Position numbers and translations under genes: made by a program. Under the pieces are notes generated by a model that ran no database searches, was not told the origin of the DNA, and saw only the letters and a list, made by a program, of their open reading frames with translations. A stretch of 64,000 nt of DNA from NCBI RefSeq assembly GCF_058153355.1, contig NZ_CM177019.1. One strand, 5' to 3'. Positions 16,694-35,290 of this stretch are shown piece by piece. Every line of letters starts with the position of its first letter. The first letter of the stretch is position 1.

Positions 16694-17785
16694 ATGGGAT
16701 TCAAATGCGGTATCGTCGGTTTGCCCAACGTCGGGAAATCTACCCTGTTCAACGCGCTGACCAAAGCCGGTATTGAAGCGGCCAACTTTCCATTCTGTAC
16801 CATTGAGCCGAACACAGGCGTCGTACCAATGCCTGACCCTCGCCTGGATCAACTGGCTGAAATCGTAAAACCGCAGCGTACGCTTCCCACGACCATGGAA
16901 TTTGTCGATATCGCCGGTCTGGTAAAAGGCGCATCGAAAGGCGAAGGTCTGGGTAACCAGTTCCTGACCAACATCCGTGAAACCGAAGCGATCGGTCACG
17001 TTGTTCGCTGCTTTGAAAATGACAACATCATTCACGTTTCCGGCAAAGTTAACCCGGCTGATGATATTGAAGTTATCAACACCGAACTGGCGCTGGCAGA
17101 CCTCGACACCTGCGAACGTGCGATTCATCGCGTACAGAAGAAAGCCAAAGGTGGCGATAAAGACGCGAAAGCCGAGCTGGCGGTACTGGAAAAATGCCTG
17201 CCGCAGCTGGAAAACGCAGGTATGCTGCGCGCGCTGGATTTAAGCGCTGAAGAGAAAGCGGCTATTCGTTACCTGAGCTTCCTGACGCTGAAACCAACAA
17301 TGTACATCGCCAACGTCAACGAAGACGGTTTTGAAAACAACCCGTATCTTGACCAGGTGCGTGAAATCGCGGCGAAAGAAGGTTCTGTTGTGGTTCCGGT
17401 TTGTGCTGCTGTTGAAGCAGACATTGCCGAACTGGACGACGAAGAACGTGACGAGTTTATGCAGGAGCTTGGGCTGGAAGAGCCGGGTCTGAACCGCGTG
17501 ATCCGTGCCGGTTATAAGCTGCTGAACCTGCAAACTTACTTCACCGCTGGGGTGAAAGAAGTGCGTGCATGGACCATTCCGGTTGGTGCAACCGCGCCGC
17601 AGGCCGCTGGCAAAATCCATACTGATTTTGAAAAAGGCTTTATCCGCGCACAAACTATTTCGTTCGAAGATTTCATCACTTACAAAGGTGAACAAGGCGC
17701 GAAAGAAGCAGGCAAAATGCGTGCAGAAGGTAAAGATTACATCGTTAAAGATGGCGATGTAATGAACTTCCTGTTCAATGTCTAA
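16694..17785 (+). CDS. ychF: Ribosome-binding ATPase YchF (Obg-family GTPase)
   Basis: ORF track 363 aa; P-loop [12 protein letters not shown] domain at the C-terminus. Confidence 0.95.
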
Positions 17786-18030: not shown

Positions 18031-18288
18031 TTACAGCTGATCAATATTGATCACGCTCCAATATGCTGGCGAGAAAAGGACTTGCCTGAAGGGCAATATC
18101 CAGCAGATAAAGCCCCCGAATAACGTGATTACGTGCGATCCTGACAAGATGAAAATGATAACCAGTATCACGATAATAACGATATGCCAGAAAATCCATT
18201 GATCAAAAATGAATATCGATGTTTTTTGCTTTTTCTTATTAGTAATGCAAAAATGGCTCATATTGTTTTTGTTATGCAGATACATCAA
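18031..18288 (-). CDS. Hypothetical small hydrophobic protein (85 aa); may be non-coding
   Basis: ORF track only; contains a transmembrane-like stretch WIFWHIVIIVILVIIFILSG; lies in an AT-rich 0.85-kb intergenic region; no homology recognised. Confidence 0.2.
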   Translation of the reverse strand: MMYLHNKNNMSHFCITNKKKQKTSIFIFDQWIFWHIVIIVILVIIFILSGSHVITLFGGFICWILPFRQVLFSPAYWSVINIDQL

Positions 18289-18629: not shown

Positions 18630-21497
18630 ATGGGCATCAAACAACACAATGGGAATACCAAAGCCGATCGTCTCGCTGAATTAAAAATCCGTTCGCCCTC
18701 CATTCAACTGATAAAATATGGCGCTATTGGTTTGAATGCAATTATCTTTTCCCCCCTGCTGATAGCTGCTGATTTAGGAAGTCAAAATGGCACCAATATT
18801 ACTATTAATGATGGTGACAGAATTACAGGAGATACCGCCGATCCATCAGGAAACCTCTATGGTGTAATGACCCCAGCAGGAAACACGCCTGGCAATATCA
18901 ACCTGGGTGATGATGTCACCGTCAATGTCAACGACGCCTCTGGATATGCAAAGGGAATCATTATTCAGGGCAAGAACAGCTCTCTGACAGCTAACCGACT
19001 TACAGTAGATGTTGTTGGTCAAACCTCTGCCATCGGCATTAATTTAATTGGTGACTATACACATGCTGACTTAGGCACAGGCAGCACCATTAAGAGTAAC
19101 GATGACGGCATCATTATTGGGCATAGCTCAACACTAACAGCCTCTCAATTCACCATTGAAAACTCGAACGGTATAGGCCTAACCATCAATGACTATGGCA
19201 CCAGTGTCGATCTTGGAAGCGGTAGTAAAATCAAGACCGATGGAAGTACAGGTGTTTATATCGGTGGTCTCAACGGCAATAACGCCAACGGTGCTGCGCG
19301 TTTTACGGCGACAGACCTGACAATCGATGTTCAGGGCTACAGCGCCATGGGAATAAACGTACAGAAAAACTCTGTTGTCGATCTCGGAACAAACAGTACC
19401 ATTAAAACCAATGGCGATAATGCACACGGCCTCTGGAGCTTTGGCCTGGTGAGCGCGAATGCACTCACTGTTGATGTAACTGGAGCCGCTGCCAATGGCG
19501 TCGAAGTTCGTGGTGGTACAACCACTATCGGTGCTGATAGCCATATTTCTTCCGCGCAGGGCGGTGGCCTCGTAACCAGTGGTTCAGACGCGACAATCAA
19601 TTTTTCTGGCACGGCAGCGCAACGAAACAGCATCTTTTCCAGCGGTTCTTATGGTGCCTCAGCCCAGACGGCAACGGCTGTTATCAACATGCAAAATACC
19701 GATATTACGGTTGATCGTAATGGCAGTCTGGCGCTGGGTTTGTGGGCGCTCAGCGGCGGTAGAATAACCGGAGACAGTTTGGCTATCACCGGCGCGGCAG
19801 GAGCCAGGGGGATTTATGCCATGACCAACAGCCAGATCGATCTCACGAGCGATCTGGTCATTGATATGAGTACACCCGACCAGATGGCCATCGCAACGCA
19901 ACATGACGATGGTTATGCCGCCAGCCGCATCAACGCTTCGGGTCGTATGCTTATCAACGGTAGCGTTCTTTCTAAAGGTGGGCTAATCAATCTGGATATG
20001 CACCCTGGGTCGGTTTGGACAGGTTCTTCCCTCAGCGATAATGTCAATGGCGGGAAACTGGACGTTGCAATGAATAACAGCGTCTGGAACGTAACAAGTA
20101 ATTCTAATCTCGACACGCTGGCGCTGAGCCATTCAACTGTCGATTTTGCCAGCCACGCGTCAACTGCCGGCACATTTACCACATTAAACGTAGAGAACCT
20201 TAGCGGTAACAGTACCTTTATTATGCGTGCTGATGTTGTTGGCGAGGGTAATGGCGTTAATAATAAAGGAGATTTATTGAATATCTGCGGGAGTAGTGCT
20301 GGTAATCACGTATTGGCTATCCGTAACCAGGGCAGCGAGGCCACAACGGGAAATGAAGTTCTGACAGTGGTAAAAACCACTGACGGCGCGGCCTCGTTCA
20401 GCGCGTCTTCTCAGGTTGAGTTGGGGGGATATCTGTATGATGTGCGTAAAAATGGCACTAACTGGGAGCTTTATGCTTCCGGGACAATTCCGGAGCCGAC
20501 TCCTAATCCAGAGCCCACACCAGCTCCCGCTCAGCCCCCCATAGTCAACCCCGATCCTACGCCTGCCCCCGCTCCCACGCCTAAACCCACCACGACCGCA
20601 GATGCTGGCGGCAATTATCTCAATGTCGGTTACTTATTGAACTATGTTGAAAACCGTACGCTGATGCAACGGATGGGTGACCTGCGAAATCAGGGTAAAG
20701 ACGGTAATATCTGGTTGCGCAGTTATGGGGGAAGCCTGGACTCCTTTGCCAGTGGCAAACTGAGCGGCTTTGACATGGGTTACAGCGGTATCCAGTTTGG
20801 TGGGGATAAACGTCTCTCTGATGAAATGCCGTTGTATGTCGGTCTGTATATTGGCTCAACACATGCATCGCCGGACTATAGCGGAGGCGACGGTACCGCA
20901 CGTTCAGACTACATGGGAATGTACGCCAGTTACATGGCACACAACGGTTTTTACAGCGATCTCGTTGTAAAAGCATCGCACCAGAAAAATAGTTTCCACG
21001 TACTGGACAGTCAGAACAACGGCGTTAACGCCAACGGCACTGCGAATGGATTGAGCATCTCCCTGGAAGCCGGGCAGAGGTTCAACCTGACCCCTACTGG
21101 TTATGGGTTCTATATAGAGCCGCAAACCCAGCTCACATACAGCCACCAGAATGGGATGGCTATGAAGGCGAGTAATGGTCTCAATATACATCTGAATCAC
21201 TACGAATCGCTGCTGGGGCGTGCCAGCATGATACTGGGATATGACATCACCGCAGGCAACAGCCAGCTGAATGTCTATGTGAAGACTGGCGCTATCCGCG
21301 AGTTTTCAGGGGATACCGAATATCTGTTGAACAACTCCCGGGAGAAGTACAGTTTCAAAGGTAATGGCTGGAATAACGGCGTGGGAGTCAGTGCACAGTA
21401 TAACAAACAGCACACATTCTATCTCGAAGCGGATTACACGCAGGGTAACCTCTTTGATCAGAAGCAAGTCAACGGAGGATATCGCTTCAGCTTTTAA
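18630..21497 (+). CDS. ycgV: AIDA-I/Ag43-type autotransporter adhesin (YcgV-like)
   Basis: ORF track 955 aa; repetitive Gly/Thr/Asn-rich passenger, Pro-rich linker (PEPTPNPEPTPAPAQPPIVNPDPTPAPAPTPKPTT) and C-terminal beta-barrel ending ...GYRFSF; position between ychF and dhaR. Confidence 0.85.
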   Translation: MGIKQHNGNTKADRLAELKIRSPSIQLIKYGAIGLNAIIFSPLLIAADLGSQNGTNITINDGDRITGDTADPSGNLYGVMTPAGNTPGNINLGDDVTVNVNDASGYAKGIIIQGKNSSLTANRLTVDVVGQTSAIGINLIGDYTHADLGTGSTIKSNDDGIIIGHSSTLTASQFTIENSNGIGLTINDYGTSVDLGSGSKIKTDGSTGVYIGGLNGNNANGAARFTATDLTIDVQGYSAMGINVQKNSVVDLGTNSTIKTNGDNAHGLWSFGLVSANALTVDVTGAAANGVEVRGGTTTIGADSHISSAQGGGLVTSGSDATINFSGTAAQRNSIFSSGSYGASAQTATAVINMQNTDITVDRNGSLALGLWALSGGRITGDSLAITGAAGARGIYAMTNSQIDLTSDLVIDMSTPDQMAIATQHDDGYAASRINASGRMLINGSVLSKGGLINLDMHPGSVWTGSSLSDNVNGGKLDVAMNNSVWNVTSNSNLDTLALSHSTVDFASHASTAGTFTTLNVENLSGNSTFIMRADVVGEGNGVNNKGDLLNICGSSAGNHVLAIRNQGSEATTGNEVLTVVKTTDGAASFSASSQVELGGYLYDVRKNGTNWELYASGTIPEPTPNPEPTPAPAQPPIVNPDPTPAPAPTPKPTTTADAGGNYLNVGYLLNYVENRTLMQRMGDLRNQGKDGNIWLRSYGGSLDSFASGKLSGFDMGYSGIQFGGDKRLSDEMPLYVGLYIGSTHASPDYSGGDGTARSDYMGMYASYMAHNGFYSDLVVKASHQKNSFHVLDSQNNGVNANGTANGLSISLEAGQRFNLTPTGYGFYIEPQTQLTYSHQNGMAMKASNGLNIHLNHYESLLGRASMILGYDITAGNSQLNVYVKTGAIREFSGDTEYLLNNSREKYSFKGNGWNNGVGVSAQYNKQHTFYLEADYTQGNLFDQKQVNGGYRFSF

Positions 21498-27643: not shown

Positions 27644-27673
27644 GTAAGCGGCTCGCCAGAACCGTATTGATAT

Positions 27674-29245
27674 TTACTGAGAGCTCAGATCAACTTTCCA
27701 GGGCAACAGATCGCGTACCCGGTTTGCCGGCCAGTCCTGGATATGTTCAATGACGTAACGCAGCCACTTTTCTGGCTCCACATTGTTCAGACGGCATGTG
27801 CCGATCAGCGAGTACAACACCGCAGCATGTTCACCACCGCTGTCAGAACCCGCGAAGAGCCAGTTTTTCCGGCCTACGGCCACTCCCCGTAAGGCGTTCT
27901 CTGCGATGTTGTTGTCGATTTCCACCCAGCCATTACTGCAGTACACGTTCAGTGCATCCCACTGTTTCAGCAGGTATGCGAACGCTTTTGCCGTGTCCGA
28001 GTGACGCGACAGTGTTTTCATCTGTTGCTGTATCCAGTCATACAGTGACTGCATCAGTGGCGCGGCTCTGGCTTTTCTTGCCGCCAGACGCTGTTCTGCT
28101 GAACAGCCCCGGACCTCTGCCTCGATGGCATACAGTTCACCGATACGCTGCAGGGCTTCCGTGGTGATGTCGGTGGGCACTCTTGCATGCACATCGTGGA
28201 TTTTTCTCCGGGCATGAGCCATACATGCGGCTTCCGTTATTCTGCCGGATTCGTACAACGCCCGGTAACCACCGTAAGCATCGGCCTGAAGCACTCCGCT
28301 GTAACCGGCCAGATGATTCTGTGGATGGATACCTTTCCGGTCCGGGCTGTACGCGAACCAGACCGCCGGAGGCATTTCCGAACCGGCGTTACGGTCATCA
28401 CGAACGTAGACCCACAGCCGGGCAGTCCTTGTTTTACCGCTGCCCGGCTCCTGGACCGGAACGGGGATATCATCGGCATGGACTTTACCGGGCATCAGCA
28501 CATACTGGCGCAGGATGTCATACAGCGGTTCCAGCAGTTCAGCAACAGCACCTGTCCAGCGCCCCAGTGTGGCACGGCTCAGCTCCACGCCCTGACGACG
28601 GTATATTTCTGACTGGCGGTATAACGGCAGATGGTCTGCATATTTTCCAGCGACAACATGGGCCAGAAGCCCCGCTCCGGCATAACTGCGTGCAATGGGT
28701 TTTGAAGGCACCGGAGCCTGCACGATATGGTCGCACCGGCAACAGGCCAGTTTCGGACGTTGTGTTTCGATAACCTTAAAGGCGCTGCTGATAAGCTCCA
28801 GTTGCTCTGACACATCACATCCCAGAGAACTGAGTTCGCCACCACAGGCCGGGCAGCATTCCTCTTCCGGACGGATGACCCGGGTTTCACGGGGAAGTGA
28901 GGCAGGTAACGGTTTACGGGCTGAAGACTGGCGCAGGGGAGATGGCAGTACCGGGTCATATTGCTCACCCAGCGTTTCCGCCATTTCTTCCTGAAGAGCG
29001 CTGATTCGCTCCTGTGCTTCCTGTATCTGCCGTTCGGTTTTTGCACGAAGTTTTTCTGAGCTTTTACCGAACTGCATGCGCTGCAGTTTTGCAACCAGCG
29101 CCTTCAGCCGGTTGATTTCGGAAGCATAAGCCGCCACCCGCTGTGAGAGCAGGCGGTTGTATTTCGCCATCTGGCGGATGGTGTCCTGTTGCGTCTGCAA
29201 CAGTGCCCGCAGGCGGGCATTCTCATGAGCAAGTGAGGTGTCCAT
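27674..29245 (-). CDS. IS66-family transposase (orf3/TnpC)
   Basis: ORF track 523 aa; N-terminal coiled-coil/leucine zipper then a CxxC region, as I recall for IS66 transposases. Confidence 0.85.
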
Positions 29246-29264
29246 ATCCTCACTTTACAACGGG

Positions 29265-29612
29265 TTATATGCGGATGCCAGCGCGTTCCGTTCGTTTCGG
29301 GTGTTTCCAGTCGATGCCCTCAAGAAGCATGGATAACTGGGCCGGAGTAAGGTGCACCTTGCCGTCACGGGTGACCGGCCAGACGAAGCGGCCCCGCTCC
29401 AGGCGTCTGGTGAAGAGGCACAGTCCGTCACTGTCAGCCCACAACACTTTTATCTGGTCACCCCGGCGTCCGCGGAAGATGAACAGATGCCCGGAGAACG
29501 GGTCATCCTTCAGGACGTTCTGAACTTTTGAGGCCAGGCCGTTAAAGCCATTTCGCATATCGGTGATACCTGCAACCAGCCAGATACGCGAACCTGCAGG
29601 GAGAGATATCAC
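29265..29612 (-). CDS. IS66 Orf2 (TnpB-like accessory protein)
   Basis: ORF track 115 aa; MISLPAGSRIWLVAGITDMRNGFNGLA... recognised as IS66 orf2 type; overlaps orf1 by 4 bp. Confidence 0.85.
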   Translation of the reverse strand: MISLPAGSRIWLVAGITDMRNGFNGLASKVQNVLKDDPFSGHLFIFRGRRGDQIKVLWADSDGLCLFTRRLERGRFVWPVTRDGKVHLTPAQLSMLLEGIDWKHPKRTERAGIRI

Positions 29613-30037
29613 CGTCTCAGCTCCTGTATAAGCAAGGACAGCAGATTTTCATTCACTGCCCCGTTCAACCGAAGGGTGCCGTTTCTGAACGTAATCTCAC
29701 AGGAGATGCTGTGTATTTCCGGTGTTACTGACGGTCTTGCGGTCAGTGGCTCATTAGCCGGAGCAGTTGGGAGTTGGGCATCAATAGTGACAGGAATTAA
29801 CTGAGATTCTCTGCCTGATTCTGATGATGGCAATTTTATCTTCCCCTGCCGCCATTTCTGACGCCATTTGAACAACAGATTGGCATTAATACCATTGTCC
29901 AGGGCCAGTCTGGAAATTGAAACACCTGGCTGGAATGATGCTTCTATGAGTCGTTGTTTGAATTCAGGAGGATAATTCAGGCACCCTTTAGGCCTTCCCG
30001 GAGAGGCATTTTTTTGTATATCTGACATTTTTATCAC
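29609..30037 (-). CDS. IS66 Orf1 (TnpA-like accessory protein)
   Basis: ORF track 142 aa; helix-turn-helix-like N-terminus (PEFKQRLIEASFQPGVSISRLALDNGINANLLFKWRQ). Confidence 0.8.
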   Translation of the reverse strand: MIKMSDIQKNASPGRPKGCLNYPPEFKQRLIEASFQPGVSISRLALDNGINANLLFKWRQKWRQGKIKLPSSESGRESQLIPVTIDAQLPTAPANEPLTARPSVTPEIHSISCEITFRNGTLRLNGAVNENLLSLLIQELRR

Positions 30038-30112
30038 CCACTATTAATTTAGTGGTGGATACTTTGTCCAAAGCATCGGGAATTTGCCAGACGGTCCTGA
30101 TAAGACGCTTAC

Positions 30113-30120: not shown

Positions 30121-31381
30121 TGTCGTGCCGGGCGGACGTTTTCGCGAGGTATATTACTGGGACAGTTACTTCACCATGTTAGGGCTTGCCGAAAGCGACC
30201 ACTGGGATAAAGTTGCGGATATGGTGGCCAATTTTGCTCATGAAATAGACACTTACGGGCATATTCCCAACGGCAACCGCAGTTACTATTTAAGCCGCTC
30301 GCAACCGCCCTTCTTTGCCCTGATGGTAGAGTTACTGGCGCAGCATGAAGGCGATGCCGCGTTGAAGCAATACCTGCCGCAAATGCAAAAAGAATATGCT
30401 TACTGGATGGACGGTGTTGAAAACCTGCAAGCCGGACAACAGGAAAAACGCGTTGTCAAACTTCAGGATGGTACCCTTCTCAACCGCTACTGGGACGATC
30501 GCGATACGCCACGACCAGAGTCATGGGTGGAAGATATTGCCACCGCCAAAAGCAATCCGAACCGGCCTGCCACTGAAATTTACCGCGACCTGCGCTCTGC
30601 CGCTGCGTCTGGCTGGGATTTCAGCTCGCGCTGGATGGACAATCCGCAGCAGTTAAACACCTTACGCACCACCAGCATCGTACCGGTCGATCTGAACAGC
30701 TTGATGTTCAAAATGGAAAAAAACCTCGCCCGCGCCAGCAAAGCTGCCGGAGATAACGCGATGGCAAACCAGTACGAAACGCTGGCAAATGCCCGTCAAA
30801 AAGGGATCGAAAAATACCTGTGGAACGATCAACAAGGCTGGTATGCCGATTACGACCTGAAAAGTCATAAAGTGCGCAATCAGTTAACCGCTGCCGCCCT
30901 ATTCCCGCTGTACGTCAATGCGGCAGCGAAAGATCGCGCCAACAAAATGGCAACGGCAACGAAAACACATCTGCTGCAACCCGGCGGCCTGAACACCACG
31001 TCGGTGAAAAGTGGGCAACAATGGGATGCACCAAATGGCTGGGCACCGTTGCAGTGGGTCGCGACGGAAGGATTACAAAACTACGGGCAAAAAGAGGTGG
31101 CGATGGACATTAGCTGGCACTTCCTTACCAATGTTCAGCACACCTATGACCGGGAGAAAAAGCTGGTGGAAAAATATGATGTCAGCACCACCGGAACAGG
31201 GGGCGGCGGTGGCGAATATCCATTACAGGATGGCTTTGGCTGGACCAATGGCGTGACGCTGAAAATGCTGGATTTGATCTGCCCGAAAGAGCAACCGTGT
31301 GACAATGTTCCGGCGACGCGTCCACTCAGTGAATCAACAACACAGCCGCTAAAACAAAAAGAGGCGGAACCTACGCCTTAA
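30113..31381 (+). pseudogene. treA: Periplasmic trehalase treA, 3' fragment (about 420 codons), separated from its promoter and 5' end
   Basis: Reading through the duplicated GAACCTTA restores the frame ...[27 protein letters not shown] track 30125..31381 covers it. Confidence 0.9.
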
Positions 31382-31395
31382 CTTTACTGTATATC

Positions 31396-31438
31396 GAGCA
31401 ATGCCATTACGTGCATAAAATTGGCATTGCTCTTTCTT
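31396..31438 (+). terminator. Rho-independent terminator after treA
   Basis: Perfect 11-bp stem gagcaatgcca/tggcattgctc with a 15-nt loop followed by tttctt. Confidence 0.6.
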
Positions 31439-31710
31439 CATCACGAAATACCACTCTTTCTACAGTCTATGCCTTTATTTTCTTTTATTAGGGAAGATTT
31501 TAATTTTATTTTATCAACTTGTTAATCATTACACCTCTATTTATATTTTCCCCCACTCCCCATTCTCCCTGACAATTTTCTTGTGGAACAAAGTGTTATT
31601 TAAGAAACAAGCAAATCATTCTGTCTCTTTAGACAAATTTTGACATCAAACATGATCTTTTTCGCTATATGTGTAAGTATATAGCGGTTTTAATTATCAG
31701 GATATTACTT

Positions 31711-32733
31711 ATGTCACTAACCAGACGGAGGTTTACACAGATTCTTGCGTCGACATTGTTCCTGCATCATCTGCCGTCCTTTGCACAATCAGTCAAATTC
31801 TGGGCCTCACTGACGCTTCCCGAAGCCCAAAACATTACACGCATCGTCAGCGCAGGCGCGCCCGCCGATTTACTATTGCTGGCTGTCGCGCCAGAAAAAA
31901 TGGTCGGTTTTTCCTCTTTTGATTTTGCCCGTCAGGCATTAATTCCATTGCCAGAGCACATTCGCCAGTTCCCCAGGCTGGGACGACTCGCCGGGCGCGC
32001 CAGCACACTCTCGCTGGAAGGGCTTATGGCATTACATCCCGATTTGGTCGTTGATTGCGGCAATACGGATGAAACCTGGATCTCCCAGGCACGGCAGGTT
32101 AGCGAACAGACACAAATACCCTGGTTATTGCTTAACGGGAAACTGGAACAATCAGCAGAACAGTTAACAACGCTTGGCAAAACGTTAGGCGAAGAGCACC
32201 GCGCCGCAGAACAAGCCAATCTCGCCAGCCGCTTCGTTGGTGAAGCTCAGGCATTCGCCACCTCACCCGCCGCTAACCTCAGCTTTTATGCTGCGCGCGG
32301 TCCTCGAGGGCTGGAAACGGGCTTACAGGATTCGTTGCATACCGAGGCGGCGGAATTATTAGGTTTGCACAACGTCGCGCAAATAGCCGATCGCCACGGT
32401 CTGACACAGGTTTCCATGGAAAATCTCCTGCGCTGGCAGCCGGATATTATTCTGGTTCAGGAGGCCGTTACTGCAGATTTTATTCGTCGTGATCCTCTCT
32501 GGCAGGGCGTGAAAGCGGTTGCGGAACAACGCATCTTATTTTTAAGTGGCCTGCCCTTTGGCTGGCTGGATGCCCCGCCGGGAATCAACCGTCTTCTGGG
32601 ATTACGCAGACTTCACGCCTGGCTGGATCCCGCCATCAATCGCCAGTTTAAAAGTGACATGCAGCATTACGCCCAACTGTTCTGGCATTGTTCACTCAGT
32701 GACGCCGACTATCAAAAATTGGTGGCGAGCTAA
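31711..32733 (+). CDS. Periplasmic substrate-binding protein of an iron-chelate/cobalamin-type (FecB/BtuF/FhuD class) ABC transporter
   Basis: ORF track 354 aa; probable start at ATG 31711 (MSLTRRRFTQILASTLFLHH..., twin-arginine-like signal); family assigned from overall sequence character and operon context. Confidence 0.7.
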   Translation: MSLTRRRFTQILASTLFLHHLPSFAQSVKFWASLTLPEAQNITRIVSAGAPADLLLLAVAPEKMVGFSSFDFARQALIPLPEHIRQFPRLGRLAGRASTLSLEGLMALHPDLVVDCGNTDETWISQARQVSEQTQIPWLLLNGKLEQSAEQLTTLGKTLGEEHRAAEQANLASRFVGEAQAFATSPAANLSFYAARGPRGLETGLQDSLHTEAAELLGLHNVAQIADRHGLTQVSMENLLRWQPDIILVQEAVTADFIRRDPLWQGVKAVAEQRILFLSGLPFGWLDAPPGINRLLGLRRLHAWLDPAINRQFKSDMQHYAQLFWHCSLSDADYQKLVAS

Positions 32734-33713
32734 TGAGAACCGTAAACGGATGTATTTTGCTGCTGGCAGCTATCAGTATCACTTTTGCCGCCGTAAGTGG
32801 GGCTTATCATCTCGATATGCAGCAACTGCTGGCGCTCATTCTTCGTCAAGAAAATGTTCCTGTGCAGGAACAAATTGTCTTCTGGCAAATCCGCGTGCCG
32901 CGTATTCTTGCTGCGCTGTTTCTGGGCGCGGCGCTGGCAGGGGCCGGAACCACCTATCAGGGAATGTTCCGTAATCCCTTAGTGTCACCGGATATTTTAG
33001 GCGTCTCCGCCGGTGCCGGACTTGGTGCCTGCGCGGCAATCCTGTGGGGATTATCCATTGTTTACATCCAGCTGTACGCATTTTGCGGCGGGCTGATGGT
33101 GGTCGCGGGCGTCTGGTTGATTACGCGTCGGGTGACCCGCCACGATCCGATCTTAACCCTGGTGCTGGTAGGCATTGCGTTAGGAACGTTGTGCGGAGCG
33201 GGGATATCGCTAATAAAAACGCTGGCCGATCCTTACACCCAGTTACCGTCAATTACCTTCTGGTTGCTGGGGGGGCTGTCCACCGTGACCTTACGCGATC
33301 TCTGCTATGCTGCACCGATCATTCTCATAGGCTCCTTGCCCCTGTTTTTTCTCCGCTGGCGCATGAATTTACTCACGCTTTCCGACGACGAAGCCCATTC
33401 GCTGGGACTGAACGTGACACGTCTGCGCTTTGGATTAATTGTCTGCGCCACACTCATCACCGCCAGCACGGTAGCAATAGCGGGCATAATTGGTTGGGTC
33501 GGCCTGGTCGTTCCGCACATTGCCCGCTTGTTGACCGGTCATAACCATCAGCAGCTGTTGCCCATGGCAATGTGTACTGGCGCGATTCTGCTCCTGCTTA
33601 CCGATACGCTGGCACGCAGCATTGGAACAACAGAAATCCCACTTGGCATTCTGACCGCTTTTGTTGGTGCACCGTTTTTCCTGTTTTTGTTGTTACGCGG
33701 AGGTCGCCAGTGA
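32733..33713 (+). CDS. ABC transporter permease, FecCD/BtuC family
   Basis: ORF track 326 aa, polytopic hydrophobic; start overlaps the upstream stop; stop overlaps the ATPase start. Confidence 0.8.
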   Translation: MRTVNGCILLLAAISITFAAVSGAYHLDMQQLLALILRQENVPVQEQIVFWQIRVPRILAALFLGAALAGAGTTYQGMFRNPLVSPDILGVSAGAGLGACAAILWGLSIVYIQLYAFCGGLMVVAGVWLITRRVTRHDPILTLVLVGIALGTLCGAGISLIKTLADPYTQLPSITFWLLGGLSTVTLRDLCYAAPIILIGSLPLFFLRWRMNLLTLSDDEAHSLGLNVTRLRFGLIVCATLITASTVAIAGIIGWVGLVVPHIARLLTGHNHQQLLPMAMCTGAILLLLTDTLARSIGTTEIPLGILTAFVGAPFFLFLLLRGGRQ

Positions 33714-34468
33714 CTTTGCTTGCCGTCCGTCATGCGTCTCTGGGTTACTCCCGCCATCCGGTGCTACGCGACGTGTCCTTCACCCTGTCGCAAGGAACAA
33801 TTTGTTGTCTGTTAGGAGCCAATGGTTGCGGCAAAACCACACTCATGCGCTCCATTCTTGGCGTTATACCGTTATTAAAAGGCGAGATCTTACTGGATAG
33901 CCTCCCTGTGCAGACACTCAGCCATCGCCAGCGCGCGCAGGCTATTGCCTGGGTGCCGCAGGCGCACGACGGCATTTTTGCTTTTAGTGTGCTGGATATG
34001 GTGTTGATGGGCCTGGCCCCCACCATAGGCGCTTTTTCCGTTCCCGGTAAGCAAGAACGCCTGAAAGCAACGGAGCAACTGGAAAAGCTGGGCATTTTGC
34101 ATCTGGCGACACGACGCTGGAATACACTTAGCGGCGGTGAACGTCAGCTGGCTTTAATCGCCCGTGCACTCGTCCAGCAACCGCGCTTGTTATTACTGGA
34201 TGAGCCTGCCTCCAGCCTCGATTTCGGTCATCAGATCCAACTACTGGACACGCTGGCGCAGCTCAAAAATAACGGCATGACAATGCTAATGTCGACTCAT
34301 CATCCGCTCCATGCCAACGCCATTGCCGACAGCATTATCCAGGTAGAGCCAGATGGACGAGTAACACAAGGCTTACCGACCGAACAGTTAACAACGAACA
34401 AACTGGCTGCCCTGTATCGGGTTTCTGCCGACCAGATTCATCATCACCTCTCTGCAATTAGCCACTAA
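33710..34468 (+). CDS. ABC transporter ATP-binding protein (FecE/BtuD-like)
   Basis: GTG 33710 preceded by GGAGG; Walker A GANGCGKTT, signature LSGGERQ, Walker B LLLLDEP; about 252 aa. The ORF-track version (33572..34468) includes a spurious upstream extension. Confidence 0.85.
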   Translation: MTLLAVRHASLGYSRHPVLRDVSFTLSQGTICCLLGANGCGKTTLMRSILGVIPLLKGEILLDSLPVQTLSHRQRAQAIAWVPQAHDGIFAFSVLDMVLMGLAPTIGAFSVPGKQERLKATEQLEKLGILHLATRRWNTLSGGERQLALIARALVQQPRLLLLDEPASSLDFGHQIQLLDTLAQLKNNGMTMLMSTHHPLHANAIADSIIQVEPDGRVTQGLPTEQLTTNKLAALYRVSADQIHHHLSAISH

Positions 34469-34477
34469 GGAACAATC

Positions 34478-35290
34478 ATGCTCATTGATGATATTGATTT
34501 TGCGGACCTTTACCTGCAGCAACTCAAGCTGGCCCACCGCACAGAAAAAACGCCGGATCACTGGGATCAACGGGCGGAAAAAATGGCGGAAAATTGCGCC
34601 TCGCCTACGGACAGCTACCTGCAACAACTGACCGCTAAAATTGATCTGCAAGGCGCGCAGACCTTATTCGATATGGGCTGCGGACCGGGTACCGTATCGC
34701 TGGCGCTGGCTGACAAACTCACGACGATTTATGGCGTTGATTACAGTCAGGGGATGCTGAAGGTTGCCGCCCGTCGCGCCGCCGCGCTAAAGGCAGACAA
34801 TGTCCACTGGATCCAGCGCGCATGGGAAGAGGACTGGAGTGACCTGCCACGCTGCGATATTGCCGTGGCTTCCCGCTCCACTCTGGTGGCTGATATGCGC
34901 CAGGCAATGAGCAAACTGAATAATCAGGCACGGCTTCGCGTCTATACGACTCATCTGGTCAGCACCTCGTTCGTCTCTCCAGCCATTCAGCGGGCGGCTG
35001 GTCGGGAAGTGATCGAATTACCCAACTATATCTTTGCGCTCAACGTCCTGTATCAGATGGGAATTTATGCTCACGTTGATTTTATCCGTGGACAAAATTG
35101 CCAACAGGATAACAGCACCTGGGAACGTTTTGAGCAGAACGTCAGCTGGAGTCTGGGCGCGCTTAACGACGATGAGCGTGAGCGGTTATATCGCTGGTAT
35201 CAACAACAAGATGCTCGTGCCCTCGCCCCTGCCAGCCGCGACTGGGCGCTCATCTGGTGGGATAGCGTACCGCAAGAGGCACTGCGATGA
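34478..35290 (+). CDS. Class I SAM-dependent methyltransferase
   Basis: ORF track 270 aa; motif I LFDMGCGPGTVSLALA; substrate unknown. Confidence 0.7.
   Translation: MLIDDIDFADLYLQQLKLAHRTEKTPDHWDQRAEKMAENCASPTDSYLQQLTAKIDLQGAQTLFDMGCGPGTVSLALADKLTTIYGVDYSQGMLKVAARRAAALKADNVHWIQRAWEEDWSDLPRCDIAVASRSTLVADMRQAMSKLNNQARLRVYTTHLVSTSFVSPAIQRAAGREVIELPNYIFALNVLYQMGIYAHVDFIRGQNCQQDNSTWERFEQNVSWSLGALNDDERERLYRWYQQQDARALAPASRDWALIWWDSVPQEALR

Follow-up and report, generated by a model that had tools for sequence, protein, structure and literature searches.

The locus considered here has been assigned to iron uptake. Molybdate-bound ModE binds DNA and represses molybdate uptake genes (PMC11672702), and the consensus published for the ModE site of E. 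coli is ATCGNTATATA-N6-TATATANCGAT (PMC545781). In Haemophilus influenzae, the molABC genes adjoin modA and modD (HI1469-HI1475) (PMC3928620), and molB is repressed by molybdate via a factor that the authors called unknown (PMC4031551). A six-gene island of E. coli that also includes modD, the 'prrA-modD-yc73-fepC' cluster, was first noted in CFT073 (Guyer et al. 1998, as cited in PMC1890555). In O157 lineage I it corresponds to OI#55/S-loop#83 (ECs1693-ECs1699), 'proposed to be involved in iron uptake' (PMC1890555), and in a 2026 paper the cluster is 'possibly mediating iron uptake' (PMC12928451). The literature of 2007-2026 treats it as a cluster with a possible function in iron uptake, found in uropathogenic, avian and O157 lineage I strains, and the genome annotation still reads 'iron ABC transporter'. 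The copy analysed here lies between treA and ymgE in a 64,000-nucleotide stretch of an E. coli chromosome (assembly GCF_058153355.1, contig NZ_CM177019.1), referred to below as the window, and the subject of this work is the leader of the operon at positions 31440-31710.

The leader carries a canonical and deeply conserved predicted ModE operator. It is highly probable that ModE-molybdate binds this operator and represses the six-gene operon, and that the island serves the acquisition of molybdenum (or tungsten) and not Fur-controlled uptake of iron. A ModE operator is a known kind of element, and the interest of this one lies in the re-reading of a widespread 'iron' island as a molybdenum-responsive system for TonB-dependent uptake and processing. 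No published ModE control of the cluster was found in a search that covered the older literature in part, and such control may have been predicted before, e.g. in a regulon database.

The ModE-type box and its conservation

The box is an inverted repeat, CGCTATATG-TGTAAG-TATATAGCG, at 31663-31686, located 24 nt 5' of the ATG of the binding-protein gene and 17 nt 3' of a conserved TTGACA. With two flanking nucleotides on each side (31661-31688, TTCGCTATATG-TGTAAG-TATATAGCGGT), it fits 17 of the 20 specified positions of the published ModE consensus. The corresponding operators in K-12 (NC_000913.3) are CGTTATATT-GTCGCC-TACATAACG, 19 nt 5' of the modA ATG, and CGCTATATA-CATGAT-TACATAGCG at moaA. 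The pattern CGYTATAT-N7-TAYATARCG has a single match in the window, at 31663-31686, even when up to two mismatches are allowed, as compared with 0.04 matches expected. A second allele of the leader in E. coli retains the box as CGATATATATGTAAATATATAGCG, which is, if anything, nearer to the consensus. The modE gene is present in 5391 of 5426 complete E. coli genomes, a species-level figure, as the mod locus lies beyond the window.

A box matrix was trained on ortholog boxes from outside Escherichia only, and its consensus, ATCGTTATATATTTAAATATATAACGAT, agrees with the published ModE consensus. With this matrix, the leader box scores 30.0 bits and the next best site in the 64 kb scores 7.0. When about 150 kb of DNA from K-12 was scanned as a control, the only sites with a score above 7 were the operators of modA (13.2 bits) and moaA (21.9 bits). 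Since both operators are recovered, the motif derived from the orthologs is the experimentally known ModE motif. ModE had been listed among the regulators to be scanned for in the original prediction, made from the letters of this DNA, and the scan returned a canonical operator match.

ModD homologs are common in Enterobacterales; 20 were aligned, and 80 loci were then taken from contigs representing one genome per species. The same six-gene order was found in 52 of the 80 loci, from genera that include Escherichia, Citrobacter, Raoultella, Enterobacter, Klebsiella (K. indica), Symbiopectobacterium, Serratia, Pantoea, Erwinia, Pectobacterium, Affinibrenneria, Proteus, Morganella and Providencia. 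The box, at two mismatches or fewer, precedes 51 of these 52 syntenic operons and usually ends 9-35 nt 5' of the start of the binding-protein gene, the sole operon without it being one from C. braakii in which the 5' end is disrupted. When the leaders are placed side by side, one near-universal element is seen, CG(C/T)TATATA-N6-TATATA(G/A)CG, with TTGAC(A/T) upstream. Box-bearing leaders of the orthologs otherwise differ, some having a GC content of 0.45-0.57. The spacing from TTGAY to the box is exactly 17 nt in Escherichia, Citrobacter, Raoultella, Enterobacter, Klebsiella and Symbiopectobacterium, and in Morganellaceae the order is TTGACT, 16-17 nt, TAGTAT or TAATTT, then the box.

Three further placements of the box were seen. 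A second box occurs in a 100-400-nt gap between modD and the receptor gene in Morganellaceae (Proteus, Morganella, Providencia), Pectobacterium and Serratia H1w, at about 8890-9090 in locus coordinates (L040-L083, L049, L059, L060), and a receptor gene that has its own gap is then predicted to have its own molybdate-responsive promoter. In loci with methyltransferase-ModD or ModD only (e.g. Edwardsiella, Cedecea), most boxes lie just 5' of those genes. In about five loci with a distant ModD only, boxes lie several kb off or just downstream, and one of these adjoins a divergent modE homolog. Across the 80 loci, no box at two mismatches or fewer was found outside these four placement classes. 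ModD beside a classical modABC is rare in the fetched loci, with K-12-like ModA/ModB in L087 only and ModE in L085 and L087 only.

Separately, the leaders of Citrobacter, Raoultella and Enterobacter (L018-L038) share a hairpin-like sequence, tagcccttatggggta, about 60-80 nt 5' of TTGAT, that E. coli does not have. Some record titles among L015, L020 and L029 appear to be mislabelled: the operon genes on a 'Collinsella sp.' metagenome-assembled genome (MAG) contig are 98-99% identical to those of E. coli, an 'uncultured Raoultella' MAG locus is Citrobacter-like, and a 'Serratia marcescens' contig is nearly identical to Symbiopectobacterium.

Proposed control of the operon and competing explanations

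The box lies between a -35-like hexamer and the ribosome-binding site, a placement that resembles that at modA, and ModE therefore probably represses the operon when molybdenum is plentiful. With molybdate or tungstate in good supply, ModE-molybdate would occupy 31663-31686, and a box occupied at this position, between TTGACA and the ribosome-binding site, would block transcription as at modABC. When molybdenum is scarce, release of ModE would allow the operon to be expressed, and the cell would make the TonB-dependent receptor, the binding protein and the MolBC-like type II importer that it serves, as well as ModD and the methyltransferase. Binding by ModE, repression in preference to activation, the exact promoter and the transported substrate are all deduced from the sequence.

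The alternative that ModE binds the leader but activates the operon, as it does at moaA, dmsA and napF, is unlikely. ModE is annotated as a dual regulator, and a promoter with no evident -10 element might need help. However, the box, 24 nt from the start codon, occupies the stretch in which a -10 element and the start site would have to fall, and its placement resembles that at modA (19 nt) and not that at moaA (~175 nt upstream). In Morganellaceae the box is just 3' of a good -35/-10 pair, and repression of uptake when the metal is plentiful is the logic to be expected.

The question of Fur was posed by the original prediction, which described an AT-rich leader of about 270 bp as the only candidate promoter region for the six genes, and noted weak matches to the Fur consensus but no obvious Fur box. 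Each of these points is borne out. The 271-bp leader has a GC content of 0.299 against 0.501 for the whole window, where only 0.2% of 271-bp windows are equally AT-rich. Both of the weak Fur-like strings that had been quoted are present, TTAATCATTAC at 31522-31532 and AATTATCAG at 31692-31700. The best agreement of the leader with the 19-bp Fur consensus GATAATGATAATCATTATC is 12-13 of 19 positions, and 103 overlapping 19-mer positions in the 64 kb (about one per 620 bp) reach at least 12 of 19. A symmetric Fur matrix was built from 14 established K-12 Fur promoter regions, with leave-one-out and shuffle controls, and 12 of the 14 known promoters score 12.3-22.4 bits (shuffle p ≤ 0.02). The top score in the leader is 12.0 bits, at 31680-31698 (TATAGCGGTTTTAATTATC), a value matched by 6.7% of dinucleotide-preserving shuffles of the leader. 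The matrix scan, by which the original prediction stood or fell, thus found no high-scoring Fur box in the leader, and none clearly above local base composition.

Conventional iron uptake repressed by Fur through a weak or non-canonical site, at 31680-31698 or 31515-31533, would agree with the FecCD permease, the Peripla_BP_2 protein and the TonB-dependent receptor, which are typical of iron-complex uptake, and with the literature that calls the cluster a possible iron-uptake system (PMC1890555, PMC12928451). The score of 12.0 bits is also on a par with those of the weakest known targets, tonB (12.3) and exbB (13.2), and the leader may hold a Fur site as weak as that grade. Nevertheless, shuffled leaders reach 12 bits at the rate given above, and the site at 31680-31698 overlaps the right arm of the ModE box, which accounts for the AT-rich match. 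Over 350 nt 5' of the orthologous binding-protein genes, the best Fur scores are mostly 3-9 bits with no conserved position; the missing Fur box is therefore a trait of the operon family and not an accident of the strain. The strain-specific Fur targets named in a study of the Fur regulon of CFT073 by RNA-seq, proteomics and ChIP-seq are numerous and do not include the cluster. The tags c1646-c1653, inferred from the flanking genes, do not occur in the CFT073 Fur tables examined, in which the supplement text is possibly incomplete, whereas ymgE (c1645) and treA (c1654) do. On balance, control by Fur is very unlikely.

Other Fur-like sequences occur in the window. The best of these, GAAAATGATAACCAGTATC at 18151-18169 (16 of 19, 18.8 bits), lies inside a small ORF on the minus strand, in the very AT-rich gap between ychF (16694-17785) and an ORF of 955 aa (18630-21497). 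A weak match of 12.4 bits, GCTAATGAGAACCGTAAAC at 32729-32747, falls at the junction of the binding-protein and permease genes and is probably due to chance. Two segments with a GC content of 0.33 or less, 54426-54774 and 55410-55692, hold clusters of weak matches to the Fur consensus.

The original prediction took the lack of a Fur box as a hint of another regulator or a non-iron substrate. A regulator other than Fur is supported by the ModE-type box, but those that had been suggested by way of Zur or a riboswitch were not found. Zur (GAAATGTTATANTATAACATTTC) and NikR (GTATGA-N16-TCATAC), the latter also proposed for scanning, have no site in the leader at three mismatches or fewer, and NikR-like matches in the window are at chance level. 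A scan of 31000-32200 against Rfam at E ≤ 10 revealed no riboswitch, cobalamin and Moco included, a permissive scan giving three chance-level matches only, to eukaryotic or archaeal small RNAs. The idea of a non-iron substrate gains indirect support from the ModE box, modD, the MolB-like permease and the lack of c1646-c1653 in the CFT073 Fur tables. FNR was considered and rejected: the sequence around TTGAY is FNR-like in some genera (TTGAY-N4-NNCAA), but the E. coli site has three mismatches, and matches in the window (two mismatches or fewer) are at chance level. The sole Zur-like site in the window, GAATTGTTATATTATAACAGTTC at 57522-57544, has two mismatches, with none expected by chance, and lies about 30 nt 5' of an ORF for a 133-aa secreted protein (57575-57976). 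This ORF resembles PliG/YcgK, a known Zur target.

A further possibility is that the leader is mainly a target of H-NS (xenogeneic silencing) on an acquired island and that the palindrome is incidental. A GC content of 0.30, the absence of the island from K-12 and some 200 bp with no other assigned role would be in keeping with this, but it gives no account of a 24-bp motif conserved in position and sequence over about 50 species, and there is only a slim chance that it is correct. H-NS could, however, act in addition to ModE.

The inverted repeat might instead act in RNA, as a terminator/attenuator or as the expression platform of a new riboswitch in a 5' leader that starts near 31554. A terminator-like call was obtained at 31662-31687, followed by TTTTAATTAT, the hairpin of the box is present in both the minimum-free-energy and centroid RNA folds, and the promoter-like sequence at 31519-31547 would yield a leader of about 160 nt. 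That sequence is the only plus-strand match in a promoter scan, but at 9 of 12 positions it is no better than shuffles, and it is not kept outside Escherichia. The fold of the leader RNA is likewise no better than shuffles (z = -0.66), and no Rfam match was obtained at E ≤ 10. Among 39 distinct sites, paired cells make up 84.3% as compared with 84.4% in column shuffles (307 of 500 shuffles reach the observed value), and the covariation score is not above that of column shuffles (143 of 500). Of the 39 sites, 15 do not pair at the third position, to which the 'N' of the ModE consensus corresponds, and 20 do not pair at the innermost. Conservation in Providencia and Morganella extends to the CGAT flank of the ModE consensus but not to the T-run that follows the repeat. 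The motif is, moreover, a proven protein-binding DNA site at modA and moaA. These data favour a protein-binding DNA site over an RNA hairpin, and a role in RNA is exceedingly improbable.

Several points count against repression by ModE and a role in molybdenum acquisition. The leader box deviates at 3 of the 20 specified positions of the ModE consensus, and at 16-18 nt after TTGACA the E. coli leader shows no convincing -10 hexamer (at 17 nt it reads CGCTAT). Repression is therefore suggested only by the position of the box. About 200 bp of AT-rich leader is without explanation and could carry further control, e.g. by H-NS. Iron complexes, haem or corrinoids are the usual cargo of the families in which the receptor and the transporter fall, and the match of the binding protein to MolA is weak in sequence (E 1.8e-7 over 73 residues). 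Finally, the negative finding for Fur in CFT073 depends on locus tags inferred from the flanks and on supplement text that may be incomplete.

Gene content of the island and its possible substrate

The features of the locus are listed in Table 1. The intergenic gaps across the six genes are -1, -4, 9, -4 and 25 nt, and the leader is therefore the sole intergenic space able to hold a promoter. In the leader, no Fur, Zur, NikR or ModE site and no Rfam match was found in the part upstream of TTGACA (31440-31639), which is kept only within Escherichia, and the CAGGA that includes the Shine-Dalgarno sequence is kept in Enterobacteriaceae. The hairpin after treA would set this gene apart from the operon. 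It was passed over by the terminator scan, as its loop exceeds 8 nt, and a clearer terminator is seen at the equivalent place in Citrobacter loci. The hairpin that follows the receptor gene is probably a terminator.

Table 1. Positions of the leader elements, the six genes and the flanking features in the window.
Feature	Position	Strand	Details and basis
treA end (stop)	31381		5' of the leader
Terminator-like hairpin after treA	31396-31439	+	GAGCAATGCCA, 15-nt loop, TGGCATTGCTC, then TTTCTTC; read from sequence
Upstream part of leader, very AT-rich	31440-31639		GC ~0.30; promoter-like TTGTTA-17-TATATT at 31519-31547
TTGACA, -35-like hexamer	31640-31645	+	Kept across genera
Putative ModE operator, TT-CGCTATATG-TGTAAG-TATATAGCG-GT	31661-31688 (core 31663-31686)		Motif match and conservation
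Shine-Dalgarno AGGA	31700-31703	+	7 nt 5' of ATG; read from sequence
Periplasmic binding protein, 340 aa, Peripla_BP_2	31711-32733	+	Pfam, NCBIfam
FecCD/BtuC-type (type II) ABC permease	32733-33713	+	Pfam FecCD
ABC ATPase	33710-34468	+	Pfam, NCBIfam
Class I SAM-dependent methyltransferase ('yc73')	34478-35290	+	Generic methyltransferase matches only
ModD, quinolinate-phosphoribosyltransferase-like	35287-36141	+	TIGR01334 modD, 504 bits
TonB-dependent outer-membrane receptor ('prrA')	36167-38137	+	Plug and barrel domains
Hairpin between receptor gene and convergent ymgE	38145-38174		GCGGATAGC...GCTATCCGC; read from sequence

The island is absent from K-12, which has ycgY in its place, and homology to K-12 ceases immediately 3' of the treA stop codon. 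Of the 5426 complete E. coli genomes, 2139 (~40%) have 80% or more of the island, and 2144 have the promoter-proximal leader, nearly all at 95% identity or more. In the present strain, an element of the IS66 family (27644-30112, minus strand, with ORFs for an HTH transposase, TnpB and a DDE transposase) is inserted about 437 bp into treA and flanked by an 8-bp target duplication. Hence, treA is disrupted here, whereas it is intact in the closest genome (L001).

The permease has HI1471 (MolB) as its closest solved relative (E 2.3e-64, 221 bits), ahead of HmuU (171 bits), FhuB and BtuC, and for the ATPase HI1470 (MolC) is the top importer ATPase (E 1.2e-35), closeness in both cases being judged among solved structures and not from phylogeny. 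For the binding protein, 4pag, for which the ligand is unknown, comes first among solved structures, followed by MolA (HI1472), by sequence and fold. In a search with the modelled protein (pLDDT 88), MolA (3psa) ranks third, behind 4pag, with a TM score of 0.67 and 20% identity, and is the best structural match with a characterised ligand. The binding protein has a twin-arginine-type signal (LTRRRF; window positions 31711-31790), the RR motif of which is kept in most orthologs, and this suggests that it is exported folded. The receptor has no close characterised relative, the methyltransferase gave generic matches only, and the names of the protein clusters are likewise generic.

ModD was named after its place in molybdate transport operons. 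Its relatives in the PDB are quinolinate phosphoribosyltransferases and, to our knowledge, its function has gone unexplained since the 1990s. The TonB-dependent receptor suggests either that the substrate exceeds free molybdate in size or that it is scavenged when very dilute. It can tentatively be proposed that the receptor and the MolBC-like importer take up molybdenum as an organic complex, metallophore-bound or cofactor-like, and that ModD and the methyltransferase process the ligand in the cytoplasm. The operon may then represent a ModE-controlled, TonB-dependent scavenging pathway for molybdenum or tungsten that is widespread in Enterobacterales. If so, the receptor would be the first outer-membrane molybdenum receptor of enterobacteria, and a function for ModD would be at hand. 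The island also offers a genetic handle on the function of ModD.

If ModE controls the island, the island belongs to the molybdenum economy of the cell. In the inflamed gut, enterobacteria depend for part of their growth and virulence on molybdenum enzymes (nitrate, S-/N-oxide and formate respiration) (PMC7759655), and tungstate is reported to have been used against the metabolism of gut Enterobacteriaceae (PMC6781011). A TonB-dependent, high-affinity route for molybdenum or tungsten, if real, would bear on competition for the trace metal in the host, on the entry of tungstate and on the reading of 'iron-uptake' virulence gene lists.

Comparison with described uptake systems

The Fur-controlled fep, fhu, fec, chu and fit systems use the same machinery as the island, namely a receptor, a binding protein of the same fold, a FecCD permease and an ATPase, and this shared machinery explains the 'iron' annotation of the island. 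Unlike those systems, the island has no Fur box, either here or in the orthologs, a ModE-type box instead, and two extra cytoplasmic enzymes.

The moaABCDE operon has a nearly identical ModE box, but there it lies ~175 nt 5' of moaA, with the Moco riboswitch after it, whereas the box of the island abuts the ribosome-binding site and no Moco RNA motif was found.

In the MolBC-A system of H. influenzae (HI1470-HI1472), a 'secondary' type II ABC importer of molybdate/tungstate, the permease and ATPase are related to those of the island, and modD is found in both clusters. MolA is only distantly related to the binding protein of the island (20% identity in the structural alignment; E 1.8e-7), and the enterobacterial operon has a TonB-dependent receptor and a SAM-dependent methyltransferase in addition to the Haemophilus mol set. 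ModE is a candidate regulator for the repression by molybdate of this related Haemophilus operon.

The modABC operon of K-12 encodes a type I importer with high affinity for molybdate, whereas the island encodes a type II importer together with a TonB-dependent receptor, ModD and a methyltransferase. The modABC operator is proven and the leader box is known from sequence, in an island that is accessory to the species. However, the two operators share their architecture and differ little in sequence (CGYTATAT-N7-TAYATARCG), and each stands directly before the first transport gene, 19 nt from the ATG in K-12 and 24 nt here.

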